Assembly: GCA_963696395.1 (NCBI GenBank)
Contig: CAVOJZ010000002.1
Location: forward strand, 213,060 to 277,059
Direction of reading: 5' to 3'
From: an uncultured bacterium
GTDB taxonomy: Bacteria; Patescibacteriota; Minisyncoccia; UBA6257; 2-01-FULL-56-20
Length of the DNA stretch: 64,000 nt
The translations under genes were made by a program, and so were the position numbers. Of the stretch, positions 2,754 to 37,991 are shown in pieces (within the stretch, counting starts at the first letter, position 1; the number at the start of each line of letters is the position of its first letter). The notes under the pieces are model-generated. The model was not told the DNA's origin. It ran no database searches and saw only the letters and a list, made by a program, of their open reading frames with translations.

Positions 2754-3752
2754 CTAATATGAGTATTCGTCAACTAAAAGTCCGTTGTGATCGTAGAGTT
2801 GGATGTTGTCGTGATAAGGATCGGCGATGTTATTTCCCGTCCATGCCCACCACTGATTCGAAAGGAAATCTGCGTCGCCGTAATGTTGAGAGAAGCAACC
2901 GCCGTAATTTAAATTATTCAGGAACTGTTGGCACGCGTAATCCGTCGGTGGGACACGCGGATCGTTATTATCAGGCACCGTGCAGGCCGGAAGCGACTCG
3001 ATATAGTTTTGACACGAACCGGTGAAGCTCGATATCTGGGACTGGTTGATATAAGGGCACGTAAGCGGCAACTGCGGATTGGTATTTAAATCTCTTTGCA
3101 TGTAGCCGATGCATTCATTCAGGCGAAGGTTGATGGGGCCGGCGTTCGAAAAAAGATACAGTGTCTGCCCTTCGGAAAGCTGGATGTCGGCCGCCGGAGC
3201 AAACCCCGAAGGCTGATACACTTCCACCGCCTGCGGCACATATTCGCTTCCGTGATTCGATTTAAGTTCCCATCCGGTGACATCAACACTTTCGTTCTGG
3301 CTCAGATTGGTTGAAAGCGTGATCTGACCGTACGTGCCGCTGAAACCCGAATAGGAACTGCCGATGGTTATTTCCTTGAAGTACGGCGAAAGCTGTGAGG
3401 CTGTAAAGCCGGCCGGAATTTCAAGCGGATTGATTCCGGGGTTCAGGAACGTTGTCGTCGGCGCTGGCGACGAAATGTATGTCGGCGGGGGCACAATGGG
3501 CGTGGCGGGTGCAGCAGGTGCAGAATTACCTATCCCTCCGCTTAAAAGCCCGGAGCCAAATCCCGGCGGGGTTGAGCTGAATGCCGAAGAGGTTGCGGAC
3601 GGCGGCGGGAAAAACGCTTCGAGACCGCCGGTGCCCTTATTGACCAATCCGGAATTCCACAAATACACCACGACGCCGATGATTACGACGCCGAAGAGAA
3701 TGGTCCATATTTTGCCACCCATCGTACTTCCCCCGTCATCTCCGTGTGCCAT
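2754..3752 (-). CDS. Secreted or membrane-anchored protein with a Pro/Ser/Thr-rich linker and Cys-rich C-terminal domain, possibly lamin-tail-like
   Basis: N-terminal TM helix, low-complexity PAAPATPIVPPPTYISSPAPTTT stretch, VDVTGWELKSN segment. Confidence 0.45.
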   Translation of the reverse strand: MAHGDDGGSTMGGKIWTILFGVVIIGVVVYLWNSGLVNKGTGGLEAFFPPPSATSSAFSSTPPGFGSGLLSGGIGNSAPAAPATPIVPPPTYISSPAPTTTFLNPGINPLEIPAGFTASQLSPYFKEITIGSSYSGFSGTYGQITLSTNLSQNESVDVTGWELKSNHGSEYVPQAVEVYQPSGFAPAADIQLSEGQTLYLFSNAGPINLRLNECIGYMQRDLNTNPQLPLTCPYINQSQISSFTGSCQNYIESLPACTVPDNNDPRVPPTDYACQQFLNNLNYGGCFSQHYGDADFLSNQWWAWTGNNIADPYHDNIQLYDHNGLLVDEYSY

Positions 3753-26779: not shown

Positions 26780-29506
26780 ATGGAACTCACCATCACAAAG
26801 CGGGACGGTACGCGGGAGCCATTCAACGCGGATAAGATTAACCGATCAATCGAACGAGCTTGCATCGGGCTCGAAGATCCGATCAGTATGGTCACCCAAA
26901 TCGCAACCGAGACGCGGCTTACGCTTTACGATGGCATCACGACGGAGGAAATGGACCAGGCGACGATCAATGCCGCCGTCCAGAACATAAAAGAGGATAT
27001 TGAATACGACAAAGTCGCCACGCGGCTGCTATTGAAGACGGTATACCGCAAAGTGGTCGGTGAATACGACGACAATCTCGAGCTATTGCGCAAAAAACAT
27101 CGCGATGGATTCGCCGAATGGGTCAGAGCCGGCGTCGAAGCAAAATTGCTCGACCCACGCCTCCTTGAAAAGTTTAATTTGAAGGAACTTTCCGGAGTTC
27201 TCGACATTTCCCGCGACGAACTCTTTGTGTACGCCGGACTTTCAACGCTTTTGAACCGTTACGCGATCAAAGATAAAAATAATCAGCCCGCCGAAACGCC
27301 GCAATACTTTTTCATGCGGCTTGCGATGGGACTCACCTTCAACGAAACCAACCCGACGCTGTGGGCTAAAAAGTTTTACCAAAAAATGTCCAGGCTCGAA
27401 TACATTCCCGGCGGTTCGACGAACCTCGGCGCAGGAACAACACGACCGAGCCTGTCGAACTGTTTCCTTTTGCAAATCGAAGACGACATTGACCACATCG
27501 CAAAATCGGTAAGCGATGTCATCAAACTTTCGAAAGCGAGTGGGGGGATCGGCGCATCGGTTACCAAGCTGCGCGCATCCGGTTCTCCCCTCTCCTCTAA
27601 TAACTCGACATCAACCGGACCGACGCCGTTTGCGAAAATCATCGACACATCGATTCGCGCCATCCAACGCGGCGGAAAGAAAAAAGGAGCACTTTGCTTC
27701 TACATGGAAAATTGGCACATTGATTTTGTGGAGTATATAGACTGGAAACACAACGCCGGCGATGACTATATGCGCATGCGAACCGCGGACACCGCCGTCT
27801 TCCTTTCGGACGAATTCATGAAGCGCGTTGAGAACCGCGAGATGTGGTACATGTTCGACCCGAAAGAAACGCCGGATCTCGTGGAACTCTACGGAAAAAA
27901 ATTCAGTGAGCGCTATGCTGAATATATAGAGATGGCTGAAGCCGGGAAACTCCGCGTCTTCAAGAAAGTGCCAGCCGAAGAACAATATCGGCAGATTTTG
28001 GTGGCCTTGCAGGCCACTTCGCATCCGTGGCTCGTATGGAAAGACAATATCAACCTCCGGGCATTGAACAACAATACCGGGACGATCCATATGTCCAATT
28101 TGTGCACTGAAATTTGCCTTCCGCAGGATCGAAACAACATCGCCGTCTGCAACCTGGCCTCACTCAATCTTGCCGTCCACGTACACCACAAGCAGGTTGA
28201 CTGGGAAAAGCTCGAGGAAAGCGTCCGTTACGCGATCCATCAGCTCGACAACCTCATTGATATCAACGCACTCCCCATCCCGGAGGCCGAACGATCCGAC
28301 AAGGAGAATCGCGCAATCGGTTTGGGCGTGATGGGATTCGCCGACATGCTCGAACAGCTCGGAATGGCATACGACAGCGATCATGCGTGGGATTTCGCCG
28401 ACAAAGTTTTCGAATTCGTGAGCTATGTTGCAATTGATGAGAGCGCTAATCTCGCCAGAGAACGCGGGAGCTACACCCACTTCAAAGGATCCGGCTGGTC
28501 CAAAGGCATGGTGCCGGTGGATACCTTAAAAACGCTTGAAGCCGACCGCGGCACGGAACTCACACTTTCAAAGAGCAGCAAGTATCGCGGCTTGAATTGG
28601 GATGCGCTTCGCGCAAAGGTAAAGAACGGCATGCGCAACGCAACGCTCATGGCCACCGCGCCAAATGCCAACATCGGATTACTCGCCGGAACCACGCCGG
28701 GAATCGATCCGCGTTTTGCGCAAGTCTTTTCGCGCAATAAAATCTCCGGAAAATATCTCGACCTCAACCACAACCTCGTAAACGATTTGAAGAACATGGG
28801 CATCTGGGAAAAAGTCCGCGAATCTATTATCACGGAACAGGGCGACATCGCAAACATTTCCGGAATCCCCCAACACATCAAAGATATTTATAAAACTTCA
28901 TTCAGTACCTCACCGTATGCATTCATCGAAGTCGCCGCACGCGCACAGAAATGGGTTGACCAGGCGCTCTCGCGGAACATGTATCTCGAAACACGCGACA
29001 TCGGCGAAACGATGGAAATTTATTCCACCGCATGGAGGAAAGGCGTGAAGTCAACGTACTATCTCCATATGAAGCCACGACACACCGCAGAGCAAAGCAC
29101 GACGCACGTGAACAAAGCCGAGAAGATGGGCAAGCGAGGATTCGCCGGCGTGATCGACGACGAACCGCGCGTTACCGTGGAATCTGTCATCGCTCAACCC
29201 GTGGAACCGGTTGCTGTCGAAGCCATCGCAACCTTCATCGAGCCGATTGCCGCAAAGGAAGAACCGTTGCCCGTAGCGAAGGAACCAGCCTCCCCCGTTG
29301 CAACTCCGGCTTCCGCTCCCGCAGTGCGCGGAGCCTTTGCCGCAGTTGTTGATGACGTTGCGGCAACCGAATCGATAACACCCGTCGAAACCCCGATGGG
29401 CTTCACCTCCGCTCAATCCCAGCCGCAAGCGAGTGCAAAAAAGCAATATAAAATCCTCCCGCCAAGCGACCCTTCGGAAGACACCGTCTGCGACAGTTGC
29501 CAATAA
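26780..29506 (+). CDS. nrdA: Class I ribonucleotide reductase alpha subunit with ATP-cone and CxxC C-terminal tail
   Basis: ATP-cone N-terminus (ITKRDGTREPFNADKI), NLCTEI active-site motif, C-terminal ...CDSCQ, low-complexity linker before the tail. Confidence 0.9.
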   Translation: MELTITKRDGTREPFNADKINRSIERACIGLEDPISMVTQIATETRLTLYDGITTEEMDQATINAAVQNIKEDIEYDKVATRLLLKTVYRKVVGEYDDNLELLRKKHRDGFAEWVRAGVEAKLLDPRLLEKFNLKELSGVLDISRDELFVYAGLSTLLNRYAIKDKNNQPAETPQYFFMRLAMGLTFNETNPTLWAKKFYQKMSRLEYIPGGSTNLGAGTTRPSLSNCFLLQIEDDIDHIAKSVSDVIKLSKASGGIGASVTKLRASGSPLSSNNSTSTGPTPFAKIIDTSIRAIQRGGKKKGALCFYMENWHIDFVEYIDWKHNAGDDYMRMRTADTAVFLSDEFMKRVENREMWYMFDPKETPDLVELYGKKFSERYAEYIEMAEAGKLRVFKKVPAEEQYRQILVALQATSHPWLVWKDNINLRALNNNTGTIHMSNLCTEICLPQDRNNIAVCNLASLNLAVHVHHKQVDWEKLEESVRYAIHQLDNLIDINALPIPEAERSDKENRAIGLGVMGFADMLEQLGMAYDSDHAWDFADKVFEFVSYVAIDESANLARERGSYTHFKGSGWSKGMVPVDTLKTLEADRGTELTLSKSSKYRGLNWDALRAKVKNGMRNATLMATAPNANIGLLAGTTPGIDPRFAQVFSRNKISGKYLDLNHNLVNDLKNMGIWEKVRESIITEQGDIANISGIPQHIKDIYKTSFSTSPYAFIEVAARAQKWVDQALSRNMYLETRDIGETMEIYSTAWRKGVKSTYYLHMKPRHTAEQSTTHVNKAEKMGKRGFAGVIDDEPRVTVESVIAQPVEPVAVEAIATFIEPIAAKEEPLPVAKEPASPVATPASAPAVRGAFAAVVDDVAATESITPVETPMGFTSAQSQPQASAKKQYKILPPSDPSEDTVCDSCQ

Positions 29507-29535
29507 ATCGGCGTTCGGCTATCTTTATTAACACC

Positions 29536-30531
29536 ATGCTTATAGGAAAAGCCTCTCCGGAGGATATGAACCTCCATCCAATTCAATATCAGTGGGCGTA
29601 CGACCTCTATCAGCAGGCGGTGCGGAACACGTGGTTCCCGCATGAGATCGCCCTCAAGGAAGATCTATACGATTGGGAAAAAATGACGGACGACGAACGG
29701 CACGCTATCAAATTCCTCATGTCGTTCTTTAACCCTGCGGAGCTCATCGTGAACCGCTCGATCGCGCTCGGCATTTATCCGTATCTCAAATCCCCCGAAT
29801 GTCATCTCTATCTTGCAAAGCAGATGTGGGAGGAGGCAAACCACTGTGTGGCCTTCGAATATGTTTTGGAAACGTTCCCACTCGACCGCGCGAATGTTTT
29901 TAATCTTCACCTTGAAACGCCGTCAATGAAAGCCAAGGAGGCGTACATCAACCGATACCTCCGCCGCATGACGGAAGACTCGCTCGACGTGACGACGACC
30001 GGGGGCAAAAAAGATTTCATCCGAAACCTCGTGGCGACCAATCTCGTCATGGAAGGCATCTGGTTCTACAGCGGCTTCATGGTGGTGCTCTCGTTCCGCC
30101 AGCGCAACCAGCTCCGCAACTTCGCTTCAATGATCAACTGGGTGATCCGCGACGAATCGCTCCACCTTAAATTCGGCATGAGTCTCATCCAGAATGTCCT
30201 CGAGGAAAATCCGGAACTGCTCACCAAAGAATTTGCCGACGAAATCAAGAACATCGTCATCGAAGGCGTTGACCTTGAAACGGCGTACAACAAAGACCTC
30301 TTCCCGCGCGGCATTCTCGGATTGAATGCCGACTATGTTAACCAATACGTGCAATATGTTGCCGACCGGCGGCTCGAAGAACTTGGCATGAAAGCGCACT
30401 ATGGCGCAAAAAATCCAGCCAAATGGATGGCTGGCGCGACTGACGTGTACGAGCTCGTCAATTTCTTTGAAGCGCAAAATACGAGCTACGAAGTGGACTC
30501 ACACGCGGTGGATAAGAAAAAAGCCGAATAG
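29536..30531 (+). CDS. nrdB: Class I ribonucleotide reductase beta subunit (di-iron/tyrosyl radical)
   Basis: EEANHCVAFEY and NLVMEGIWFYSGF ferritin-like motifs. Start is uncertain; the track uses TTG at 29497 and the ATG at 29536 is chosen here. Confidence 0.8.
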   Translation: MLIGKASPEDMNLHPIQYQWAYDLYQQAVRNTWFPHEIALKEDLYDWEKMTDDERHAIKFLMSFFNPAELIVNRSIALGIYPYLKSPECHLYLAKQMWEEANHCVAFEYVLETFPLDRANVFNLHLETPSMKAKEAYINRYLRRMTEDSLDVTTTGGKKDFIRNLVATNLVMEGIWFYSGFMVVLSFRQRNQLRNFASMINWVIRDESLHLKFGMSLIQNVLEENPELLTKEFADEIKNIVIEGVDLETAYNKDLFPRGILGLNADYVNQYVQYVADRRLEELGMKAHYGAKNPAKWMAGATDVYELVNFFEAQNTSYEVDSHAVDKKKAE

Positions 30532-30548: not shown

Positions 30549-31211
30549 ATGTCCCTTAGAAAAATTTTGCTCGTTATTGTCGTTATAGATTTCGTACTCG
30601 CCACGATCGCCTATTTCGTCGTCTTCTATAACACGCCGGGCACATACGAAGTTGCAACGTCTCCTCTGCCAACCACGAGCACCTCATATCCAACGTCATC
30701 CCTCGCGCTTGCCACGACAACCGTTTCCTCCACCACGGAAAGTTCCACGATCCCGATCAGCACATCAACCGTCACCGGCGGAACGCCCGTCGGCAATCCG
30801 TCGCAATCGATTTATGCTTCCGATTATGCCATCCCCTATCCTCTCTCATGGGCGGAAAGCGACGCAAGCATTTCGATCATGGGCGCCACATTGCAGGGAA
30901 ATCAATTGACGTTGAATCTTGCAATCGCCATGGGCAACATCGCACAATGCATCCCGCTCAATATCCGCATGCTCCAGGATGAACAGGGCGACCTTGCCGC
31001 GCCCATCACGCCGCAATTCACATTTCCGGAAAGCGGCGCCTGCACCGGCGCACCCGGGGCGACGTATACCGACCAGCAGGTTGTCTTTACGGTTGACCCG
31101 ACAATGTTTCCGCTCTTCCTGACGACTGGCGGTGCTTCAAATATTTTCTTCCAAATCGCAACCACGACGGCGGGCGGGCTCACGGTGAATGTACCGCAAA
31201 AGAGCGGGTAG
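30549..31211 (+). CDS. Hypothetical membrane-anchored Ser/Thr-rich secreted protein
   Basis: N-terminal TM helix and Thr/Ser-rich linker. Confidence 0.45.
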   Translation: MSLRKILLVIVVIDFVLATIAYFVVFYNTPGTYEVATSPLPTTSTSYPTSSLALATTTVSSTTESSTIPISTSTVTGGTPVGNPSQSIYASDYAIPYPLSWAESDASISIMGATLQGNQLTLNLAIAMGNIAQCIPLNIRMLQDEQGDLAAPITPQFTFPESGACTGAPGATYTDQQVVFTVDPTMFPLFLTTGGASNIFFQIATTTAGGLTVNVPQKSG

Positions 31212-31276
31212 GCAACCGGCACGAGGTCGCTTGAAATACTTCCTCCTTTTGCTACACTAGTAATCGTTAGCAATAT

Positions 31277-31552
31277 TCCGCGGTAGCTCAATGGTAGAGC
31301 AAATCCCTGTCAGAAGGCAGCTCGCACGGGAAACGGTGCGATGAAACATCTTGGGATAACGGTGAAGGCTAAACCGAAAGGCATGCGAACACCGTGGGAA
31401 CCTCTCGGTAGCGAGGGGGCTCCGTAGAGACTAGATACCGAGATGCCTAAAGTCCGTTTCGACGGATCATGGCAATGATATAGTCCACGCCTTTTGGAAA
31501 CACTAGGAAGCGTGTAAGGATAAGGTTCCAGGTTCGAGTCCTGGCCGCGGAG
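31277..31552 (+). tRNA. tRNA-Asn (anticodon GUU) interrupted by a group I intron in the anticodon loop; exons 31277-31310 and 31515-31552
   Basis: Exons give acceptor TCCGCGG/CCGCGGA, D-arm GCTCAATGGTAGAGC, anticodon stem AATCC/GGATA, loop CTGT|TAA, T-arm CCAGGTTCGAGTCCTGG, discriminator G. U1-A72 and G73 fit Asn. Confidence 0.75.
31311..31514 (+). ncRNA. Group I self-splicing intron (204 nt, ORF-less) inside the tRNA-Asn gene
   Basis: Group I R element TAGAGACTAGA (31425-31435), S element GATATAGTCC (31477-31486) forming P7 GACTA/TAGTC, GGGAAA P4-like segment, 5' exon ends in U, terminal omega-G at 31514, 4-bp P1 CUGU/GCAG possible. Confidence 0.75.
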
Positions 31553-31679
31553 CACTCAGTAAAAGTATCGGACAGACCGAGAGGTGTCGATTTTTGCTAT
31601 ATTTTTTGGTGCCAAAAATTCGAGTCCTATTCCCAATGCATTTAGGACACCGAACCAGATACAGGATATAATGTTCCAT

Positions 31680-33279: not shown

Positions 33280-34623
33280 TCAGGAAATTACCAGCTGCAC
33301 TATTTTATCTCTCATGGTTAATTTGCTCTTGAAGCATCCCATCAGCTCGCGCTTTTCATTTAAGCTACCTTCCTTAAGGAGGTATTTTATGTAATTTCGG
33401 AGGTTGACGTCTTTCGCTTTCGCATCCACATTCTTGGGCTCTGGCATTCCCATGACGCTGCGCTGGAATTTTTGATGACGCTCAATTTCTGCCTCAAGCT
33501 TGTGCCTGACGCTGAGCTCGTTTAGATTGATTTGATCGATAAAGGCGGCGAGTTGCCCGATGAGGTTTTCTTCGCGGACGTATTGCGTCTTGCAGTGATG
33601 ATCCCTGCTCCGGCTGCATCCGTAATAGACGTATCGTGACGTCGTGCCGTCATCCAACTTCTTATACTTTTCCTCCGCCGTAATCCCCGATCCGCATTTG
33701 CCGCAGGTGATGAGTTTTGTAAAAGCGAATTCCCTAATTTCTGAGCGTACAATTTGGTCTCGTTTCACTCGTTCCTGCGCCTTCATGAAAAGATCTCGAT
33801 TGATGAGTGGCCTGTGCTTGCCGTCGTACCAATTCCCACTCTTTTTAGGATATTCAAAGCGCCCGTAATAAAAATGGTTATCGAGGAGAAGGTAGATATT
33901 CGCTAGGGAAAGATGATGGTTGCTTTTTGTCTTGAAATTGAGCTCGAACCGAAGCCAATGGTACAATTTTCGCCCCGTCCAATTTTCGTACGCCACCTTC
34001 TCGAACATTTGTTTGACGACCGGCGCTCGTTCTTTATCGATCGTTACCTGCCCCTTCCGGTCGCTACGGTTCTCATTCAGATAACCGGTCGGCGCAACGC
34101 CCGGCCACAATCCCATCTCCACACGAGTTCGCAGTCCCCTTTTTACGTTCACTGATTTATTGTCGTTCTCAAGCTTCGCCTGACTGCACAGAATCATCAG
34201 AAGAAATTTCTCGCTCGGCGAATTCGTGAATTTCTGTCCGAACGTTTTGATCTCGACCAATAATTTTTGATCCATGAGATCCACGAGCGATCCGAGATCA
34301 CCCGCGTTGCGCGAGAGGCGATCCGGTGCCCACGTGAGAATTCCGTTAAATCGCGCTGCTTTGAGATCGCTCACGATTTCGTTAAACACCGGGCGTTGCC
34401 CGGAGTCTTTTGCCGAGTGCGACTCGCGACGGATGTCGATAATTTCCAGCCCTTCACGCTCGGCGATCTGGAGCATCTCTTTGACTTGAGAATCGATCGA
34501 AAGCACCTGCTTTTCCTCGCTCTCGGTGCTCTTACGGGCATAGAGTACGTATCTGACCTTTATTGGGGCATGGACTGCCGTTTGGACCCCCGCCCCTGCC
34601 GGTTTTAATGGTTGGTTTACCAT
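33280..34623 (-). CDS. Large serine recombinase (resolvase N-domain, recombinase domain, zinc ribbon)
   Basis: VRYVLYARKSTESEEKQ catalytic-Ser region, ...WAPDRLSRN, C-terminal CGKCGSG...YYGC zinc ribbon and coiled coil; 447 aa. Confidence 0.85.
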   Translation of the reverse strand: MVNQPLKPAGAGVQTAVHAPIKVRYVLYARKSTESEEKQVLSIDSQVKEMLQIAEREGLEIIDIRRESHSAKDSGQRPVFNEIVSDLKAARFNGILTWAPDRLSRNAGDLGSLVDLMDQKLLVEIKTFGQKFTNSPSEKFLLMILCSQAKLENDNKSVNVKRGLRTRVEMGLWPGVAPTGYLNENRSDRKGQVTIDKERAPVVKQMFEKVAYENWTGRKLYHWLRFELNFKTKSNHHLSLANIYLLLDNHFYYGRFEYPKKSGNWYDGKHRPLINRDLFMKAQERVKRDQIVRSEIREFAFTKLITCGKCGSGITAEEKYKKLDDGTTSRYVYYGCSRSRDHHCKTQYVREENLIGQLAAFIDQINLNELSVRHKLEAEIERHQKFQRSVMGMPEPKNVDAKAKDVNLRNYIKYLLKEGSLNEKRELMGCFKSKLTMRDKIVQLVIS

Positions 34624-37647: not shown

Positions 37648-37991
37648 GGTGAAAATTATTAAGTTTCGGGGGCGTTTTCGACGATAACAAAAACGAGTCC
37701 GAGACAAATCTGAAACACCCCTCTTTTATGAAAGAAGTGTCTCGGACTTATCTCGGACTCGAGTCTCAGGGTTGGATACCTGAGGCTTACCGAACGGCGT
37801 GAGCCATGCAACGGACTTGGTGCTTGCCTTCAAGCACTGCTGGACAGACCAATCTCCACTGGTCTGCAACCGCCCGCTTAAATAACAAACAGCTAGGAGA
37901 TATTTCGATATTAGCAAATGGCTCCGGCGAGGGTCAAGGGATTGTGTGGATAACTTATGTATATTGTGTATTAAGCTACCCCTATTGGCTA

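Follow-up and report, generated by a model that had tools for sequence, protein, structure and literature searches.

A tRNA-Asn(GUU) gene with a probable self-splicing, ORF-less group I intron between anticodon positions 35 and 36

Group I introns that interrupt the anticodon loop of bacterial tRNA genes are exemplified by the intron of the tRNA-Ile(CAU) gene of Azoarcus sp. BH72, a subgroup IC3 ribozyme of about 205 nt which carries GAAA tetraloops on P2 and P9 and is held together by L2-P8 and L9-P5 clamps. The introns of tRNA-Leu(UAA) genes are mostly ORF-less. Concerning classification, subgroup IA is classically marked by the helices P7.1/P7.2 (Michel-Westhof criteria).

The known intron-split tRNA classes of bacteria were expanded from 4 to 21 by Williams in 2020 (bioRxiv 10.1101/2020.01.27.920355), and these classes include 'Asn.4Ug', as told in PMC13011429. 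In that paper (Nakagawa et al. 2026, mSystems, PMC13011429; preprint 2025), group I introns between anticodon positions 35 and 36 were described from complete Patescibacteria genomes, with 15 cases in tRNA-Asn, 3 in tRNA-Asp and 1 in tRNA-Tyr, most such introns being devoid of homing endonucleases. Precise in vitro self-splicing at 35/36 was reported there for an Asn intron (GCA_016700035.1) and an Asp intron (GCA_001029755.1), and mutation of the terminal guanosine (omega-G) to C blocked exon ligation. The same study placed nearly all Patescibacteria tRNA introns in subgroup IA by means of covariance models, and reported a recurrent error of ARAGORN and tFind, in which a shift of 2 nt makes the Asn genes appear as Thr(UGU) genes with an intron at 33/34 (PMC13011429).

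In the current study, a stretch of 64,000 nucleotides (64 kb; hereafter the window) was analysed which contains, at positions 31277-31552, what is very probably a tRNA-Asn(GUU) gene with a compact, self-splicing group I intron that is devoid of an ORF and lies between U35 and U36. The locus shares with the published 35/36 class the host tRNA, the insertion site, the CUGU exon end, the GCAG guide and most likely the phylum, as well as an omega-G preceded by (G/A)U, the lack of an ORF, a length of approximately 200 nt and the Thr(UGU) miscall. The window sequence is absent from Table S3 of PMC13011429 and is therefore a further member of the published class. A sequence-only reading of this DNA had regarded position 35/36 of tRNA-Asn as an unusual location, a view that cannot be maintained given that introns at 35/36 in Asn, Asp and Tyr genes were described in 2020 and 2025-26. 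The window copy opens no new question, and the biological gain is one more example.

The closest comparison among the published sequences is with a Paceibacteria Asn gene (GCA_030583765.1), whose first 24 exon nucleotides and acceptor 3' strand are the same as those of the window and whose core motifs gggataacggtgaag, ccgtagagactagatacc and gatatagtccacgcc are common to both, whereas the validated Asn intron of GCA_016700035.1, which is 234 nt long, comes from a sub-lineage that has diverged further and has additional nucleotides between the R and S elements. The window intron resembles the Azoarcus intron in being a minimal ribozyme that lacks an ORF, has almost the same length and lies in a bacterial tRNA anticodon loop, but it occupies a different tRNA and a different insertion site and uses a different guide sequence. 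The tRNA-Leu(UAA) intron of cyanobacteria and plastids is a self-splicing group I intron of the anticodon loop which is inherited with its tRNA gene, as the window intron also appears to be; the tRNA-Leu(UAA) intron differs in its position (34/35), its subgroup (IC3), its greater length (249 nt in Nostoc PCC 7120) and its core R/S elements (GCAGAGACUCGA... / AGAGAGUCC; PMC13011429, Table S4), and it was not retrieved by the R/S pattern used below. The introns of archaeal and eukaryotic tRNA genes also lie in the anticodon loop, but they are removed by a splicing endonuclease at a bulge-helix-bulge motif, are usually found at 37/38 and possess no ribozyme core. A permissive global alignment of the window intron to published introns was uninformative, as the Nostoc tRNA-Leu control also reached 66-74%.

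Layout and detection of the split gene

The split gene consists of a 34-nt 5' exon, a 204-nt insert and a 38-nt 3' exon, with coordinates and sequences that agree with those put forward in the sequence-only reading. Its features, together with a promoter-like site, are as follows.

31231-31258, + strand: promoter-like site, TTGAAA, 16 nt with TG, TACACT (from a consensus scan only)
31277-31310, + strand: 5' exon of tRNA-Asn(GUU), comprising the acceptor 5' strand, the D arm, the anticodon-stem 5' strand and C32 U33 G34 U35, and ending in CUGU
31307-31310, + strand: exon strand of P1, CUGU, the last 4 nt of the 5' exon
31311-31514, + strand: group I intron, 204 nt, ORF-less (from the Rfam RF00028 alignment, homologs and covariation)
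31515-31552, + strand: 3' exon, 38 nt, beginning UAAGGAUA and comprising U36 A37 A38, the anticodon-stem 3' strand, the variable loop, the T arm, the acceptor 3' strand and G73

When joined, the exons form a 72-nt cloverleaf that ARAGORN identifies as tRNA-Asn(GTT), in which the first pair of the anticodon stem (27:43) is an A.A mismatch. CCA is absent from the encoded 3' exon, which stops at the discriminator base G73. A gap of 19 nt separates the promoter-like site, a putative promoter, from the downstream tRNA 5' end. No homing-endonuclease ORF was found in the intron, as had been noted previously from the sequence: the sole open frame is an antisense frame of 81 aa (31310-31555, - strand) which spans the intron and the 3' exon and has no Pfam match. 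Relatives have comparable open frames, which seem to be a side effect of RNA sequence conservation, and gene callers could wrongly annotate the frame in the window as a hypothetical protein.

Standard annotation tools overlook the gene. Across the whole 64 kb, both ARAGORN in its default mode and Rfam at gathering thresholds yielded only a tRNA-Ser (935-1024) and nothing at the split gene, and ARAGORN found no other tRNA-Asn in the window; with introns allowed, ARAGORN called the locus tRNA-Thr(tgt) i(33,204). A permissive local Rfam search produced a full-length alignment to Intron_gpI (RF00028), covering model positions 1-253 with the R and S elements conserved. An Intron_gpI covariance search had been among the checks proposed by the sequence-only reading, and its outcome fell below the mark: 22.5 bits were scored where the gathering score is 50, and the E-value was 0.0015 on 551 nt and 0.18 on the whole window. 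Williams (2020; bioRxiv 10.1101/2020.01.27.920355) points out that the RF00028 seed sequences include no bacterial ones, and used cut-offs of 18-20 bits. The shortfall reflects the model more than the sequence. The 276-nt precursor has a fold z-score of -4.2 relative to shuffles. Taken alone, the Rfam match and the fold energy are suggestive rather than conclusive, and since the Rfam match is below threshold, reliance was placed on comparative evidence.

The locus is of value for annotation, as the gene is overlooked by tRNA finders in default mode and by Rfam at the gathering score and receives the label Thr(UGU) from intron-aware ARAGORN. Because the gene is missed or mislabelled, the genome would seem to be devoid of tRNA-Asn, to the detriment of completeness estimates; the same annotation problem is described in PMC13011429.

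Intron structure and covariation across homologs

The secondary structure was drawn from the window sequence, and comprises the following elements.

31317-31320, + strand: internal guide sequence, GCAG, the partner of the exon's CUGU in P1
31322-31341, + strand: P2 hairpin of about 6-7 bp with a GAAA tetraloop (from the MFE fold and covariation)
31347-31354, + strand: P3 5' strand, CAUCUUGG, which pairs with 31438-31445
31360-31394, + strand: P4, the J4/5 and J5/4 adenines, P5 and P5a
31396-31423, + strand: P6/P6a hairpin (from the fold, with compensatory changes in 4 pairs)
31424-31435, + strand: R element, GUAGAGACUAGA, which holds the P7 5' strand GACUA (31429-31433)
31438-31445, + strand: P3 3' strand, CCGAGAUG, forming the core pseudoknot of P3 and P7
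31446-31472, + strand: P8 with an 11-nt-receptor-like motif (CCUAAAG/CAUGG) and a UUCG-capped extension, in which 6/6 pairs covary
31477-31486, + strand: S element, GAUAUAGUCC, which holds the P7 3' strand UAGUC (31481-31485)
31487-31513, + strand: P9.0 (ACG with CGU) and, enclosed by it, P9 with its GAAA tetraloop
[quoted passage not shown]

P1 is formed by CUGU and GCAG with U31310.G31317 as the splice-site wobble, P7 is formed by GACUA with UAGUC and is pseudoknotted with P3, and P9.0 directly precedes the terminal G. Several proposals of the sequence-only reading are thereby borne out, namely the R and S elements as the two sides of P7, the U at the 5' splice site, the terminal G at 31514, and a P1-P9 fold containing a P1 U-G pair, for which all helices could be drawn. 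Its assignment of GGGAAA (31328-31333) as a P4-like segment has to be revised, since this segment corresponds to the GAAA tetraloop region of P2 and P4 is CGGUG/CACCG (31360-64 with 31390-94). P5 has a CUAA/AUG receptor-like internal loop and P5a is GAAA-capped. As judged by eye, there are 4 nt between P7 and the P3 3' strand and 7 nt between P8 and the P7 3' strand; the window intron therefore has no P7.1/P7.2, for which there is no room, and lacks this classical mark of subgroup IA. No convincing P10 pairing was seen in the window intron. The GAAA loops of P2 and P9 and the 11-nt-receptor-like motifs of P8 and P5 resemble features of the Azoarcus intron, suggesting by analogy that the same L2-P8 and L9-P5 clamps may be formed.

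Homologs were sought by scanning one genome per species with the core motif GTAGAGACTAGA, 30-60 nt, GATATAGTC. At least 120 loci carry this R/S core motif, overwhelmingly in metagenome-assembled genomes (MAGs) of Patescibacteria/CPR, and among the 120 loci listed ARAGORN with introns allowed detected a split tRNA at 80. Once the splice sites had been re-derived such that the exon ends in U and the intron in G, 72 of the 120 loci listed represented split tRNA genes (29 Asn, 34 Asp and 9 Tyr, the last being 8 plus locus L060, which was first called His and is Tyr on inspection). In every one of the 72 the 5' exon ends in CUGU (C32 U33 G34 U35), which places the cut after anticodon position 35. 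With the window included, GCAG occurs 5-17 nt into the intron in 71 of 73 members, and all 73 introns terminate in G, as GUG in 61 cases and AUG in 10. Members in tRNA-His, which would complete the GUN set, were not obtained among the loci listed, the two apparent His cases (L033 and L060) being Asp and Tyr, respectively, on inspection.

No tRNA at all was detected by ARAGORN with introns allowed around the R/S motif in 39 of the 120 loci listed, among them L021 (Staphylococcus canis), L107 (a Planctomycetia MAG) and L081 (an Omnitrophota MAG). In some cases the motif is close to the end of a contig; elsewhere the intron may interrupt an rRNA gene, a coding sequence or a different tRNA gene.

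The drawn structure was tested on an unbiased MAFFT alignment (A1) of 49 sequences from the family. In this alignment 87.7% of the cells pair in the standard way as against 71.5% in shuffles, and the covariation score is 0.453 as against 0.161 in shuffles, none of 500 of which reached the observed value; when the partners were slid by 1-3 columns, the score was only 0.075-0.139. Changes on both sides of a helix were observed in P2 (7/7 pairs), P3 (compensatory changes in 6/8 pairs), P5, P6, P8 and P9.0 as well as in all four tRNA helices, and P5a likewise covaries. The two strands of the anticodon stem, which lie on either side of the intron, covary in 5/5 pairs and are 96% paired. In P9.0, two of the three pairs change on both sides (the second being C-G in 37 sequences and U-A in 9), and the third (G-C in 22) is unpaired in 23 of 49; P9 is partly supported by the homolog alignment. 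P1 is close to invariant, with C-G in 49/49 sequences and U-A, G-C and U.G each in 48/49. P4 is 100% paired, with four invariant pairs and a fifth that changes on one side only (G-U 36, G-C 13), and being near-invariant it adds little either way to the covariation case. The invariance of P7 is circular and adds nothing because R and S constituted the search pattern, and the use of an exact R/S motif biases the homolog set towards the sub-lineage of the window.

The covariation, far above that of both the shuffled and the slid controls, bears on the reading that the likeness to an intron is fortuitous and no ribozyme is present, the two tRNA halves being separated by a plain intergenic insert or by an assembly error. 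Such a chance likeness could draw on the blank Rfam result at the gathering threshold and on the E-value for the whole window, but it would also have to account for the fold z-score, for 72 further family members among the loci listed, and for precursors that match end to end in independent assemblies. Specifically, the 276-nt precursor aligns over its entire length with split tRNA-Asn genes at L110 (a Minisyncoccia MAG; 85% identity, E 3e-87 by BLAST) and L086 (a Paceibacteria MAG; 84% identity). We therefore consider chance likeness extremely unlikely, and a group I intron remains the preferred reading. The fold, the conservation and the splice-site geometry are demonstrated at the level of sequence and covariation.

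A further alternative is that the intron is genuine by descent, but that the window copy is dead or splices poorly and another gene supplies tRNA-Asn. The low Rfam score of the window copy and the A.A mismatch in the first pair of its anticodon stem would be in line with this scenario. Against it, all core helices are intact in the window copy, and the window agrees with the family consensus at every column covered that is at least 90% conserved (111 columns), the single difference flagged being due to the end of the extracted sequence, so that there is no sign of decay; L110 and L086 retain the helices through compensatory changes, the locus is syntenic, and no second tRNA-Asn was detected by ARAGORN within the 64 kb. 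A non-functional copy is thus regarded as improbable, and the intron is apparently intact.

Isotype of the tRNA and the predicted splicing pathway

The Thr(UGU) call made by intron-aware ARAGORN corresponds to an alternative with both junctions shifted 2 nt upstream, in which the intron is inserted at 33/34 and ends at G31512, and the joined loop reads CUUGUAA. The shifted junction also has a U at position -1, a terminal G and a 7-nt loop, and the best whole-tRNA identity to an intronless tRNA of the fetched loci is to a Thr(GGU) (78%). The intronless set comprised 113 tRNAs from the fetched loci with a single Asn (69% identity to the window tRNA), and whole-tRNA identity to this set did not discriminate the isotype. 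The geometry of P1 does discriminate: the conserved guide GCAG fits CUGU, a guide for CCCU is absent, and the GCAG-CUGU pairing therefore places the wobble on U35 and not on U33. In addition, G31512 is base-paired in P9.0 of the conserved fold.

The acceptor end of the window tRNA points in the same direction. It consists of U1-A72/G73, a combination typical of the split Asn genes, among which U1 is present in 30/30 and A72/G73 was scored in 24/30; the sole intronless Asn of the loci has an acceptor end of the same Asn type, whereas the intronless Thr genes of the same loci have G1-C72/U73 in 39/42 cases. Among the best 27 full-length matches listed for annotated phage genomes, 15 are annotated at the match, 14 of these as tRNA-Asn and one as tRNA-Asx, and the remaining 12 carry no annotation at the match; in E. 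coli genomes only an insignificant match to a tRNA-Lys was found. Finally, the 2-nt miscall is documented as a systematic one, and sequenced spliced products of the class join at 35/36 (PMC13011429). The Thr(UGU) call is the known ARAGORN/tFind miscall, a true tRNA-Thr is very unlikely, and Asn is preferred. The central proposal of the sequence-only reading, a tRNA-Asn(GUU) cut at 35/36 by an ORF-less group I intron and favoured over Thr(UGU), is thus upheld by the P1 geometry, the covariation of 49 homologs, the acceptor end, the annotated tRNA-Asn matches and the splicing data for the class in PMC13011429.

For a tRNA-Asn(GUU) gene of this structure, the expected pathway is that of established group I chemistry as seen in the published assays of 35/36-class members. 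The gene would be transcribed as a 276-nt precursor from the putative promoter at 31231-31258, and the intron would fold into P1-P9.0 with CUGU paired to GCAG, so that the 5' splice site is marked by U35 in a U.G wobble. Splicing would begin with the attack of an external guanosine after U31310, following which the terminal G31514 would enter the guanosine site of P7 and the freed 3'-OH of U35 would attack after G31514. The exons would thereby be joined as CUGU|UAA, which yields the GUU anticodon loop, and RNase P and CCA addition would presumably complete the tRNA. That the window copy is itself catalytic is inferred by analogy from the in vitro splicing of the two published class members.

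Lineage, neighbouring genes and host tRNAs

The closest introns among the loci listed are from Minisyncoccia/Paceibacteria MAGs, the window is syntenic with an 888-kb MAG chromosome, and ten proteins encoded in the window are recorded from one contig of 913,682 bp, with a 90%-identity cluster mate named Ca. Paceibacterota. On this sequence evidence the host is most likely a bacterium of the Patescibacteria (Paceibacterota-type) whose genome measures about 0.91 Mb. The GC content of the window is about 50%, compared to a phylum mean of 33.6 +/- 6.7% (PMC11809585). The genes upstream of the split tRNA are syntenic with those at L019, L110 and L092, which speaks for vertical transmission; the intron appears to have been passed down with its tRNA gene in a Patescibacteria lineage, and as such the window intron adds one apparently vertically inherited example to a published and experimentally validated class.

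Locus L092 (CAWIOS010000016.1, a 434-kb contig labelled Ignavibacteriota) carries at 3467-3750 a split tRNA-Asn gene that is 81% identical to that of the window and is preceded by the same upstream genes, implying either a mislabelled bin or a host outside the Patescibacteria.

With regard to the distribution of the family, one compact intron lineage occupies tRNAs with three of the four GUN anticodons, namely those for Asn, Asp and Tyr, all with a CUGU loop that matches GCAG. In a rough neighbour-joining tree of the intron columns of the 49-locus alignment, calculated without bootstrap, the Asn, Asp and Tyr introns are intermixed, and intron distances between host tRNAs (0.32-0.34) are about equal to those within Asn (0.33). 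Such intermixing is compatible with host switching among tRNAs with a CUGU loop, or with saturation. Repeated movement of ORF-less introns from one GUN tRNA gene to another, by reverse splicing that the guide sequence directs, would be one way of reading the tree, though we regard it as unlikely. It is also a possibility, raised as speculation in PMC13011429, that tiny genomes retain these introns as a means of controlling the supply of Asn, Asp and Tyr tRNAs through splicing that depends on guanosine.

Downstream of the split gene, at a distance of approximately 1.7 kb, lies the gene of a large serine recombinase (33280-34623, - strand) with Resolvase, Recombinase and Zn-ribbon domains. Homologs with 26-36% identity lie approximately 0.5-1.5 kb from an R/S match in at least five other loci, as listed here.

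L019, 6614-7639: recombinase homolog
L014, 4198-4845: recombinase homolog
L058, 316-1299: recombinase homolog
L038, 768-1646: recombinase homolog
L008, 3276-4205: recombinase homolog

At three of these loci (L008, L014 and L019) the split tRNA was resolved, and integrative elements may sit beside these tRNA genes; a search of the window for a second copy of the tRNA 3' end, as a potential att site, gave none. For a bacterial genome, an Rfam match to mir-8536 (37685-37772, - strand), which scores 34 bits where the gathering score is 100, can almost certainly be dismissed as spurious.

A 220-aa ORF (30549-31211, + strand) without a Pfam match immediately precedes the tRNA and is kept in the same position at L019, L110 and L092 with 47-51% identity. 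It is preceded by a class I ribonucleotide reductase operon (26780-30531, + strand), composed of a large subunit with an ATP-cone and a small subunit, which separates genes that are adjacent in the otherwise syntenic L019; this arrangement indicates an insertion or loss relative to L019.
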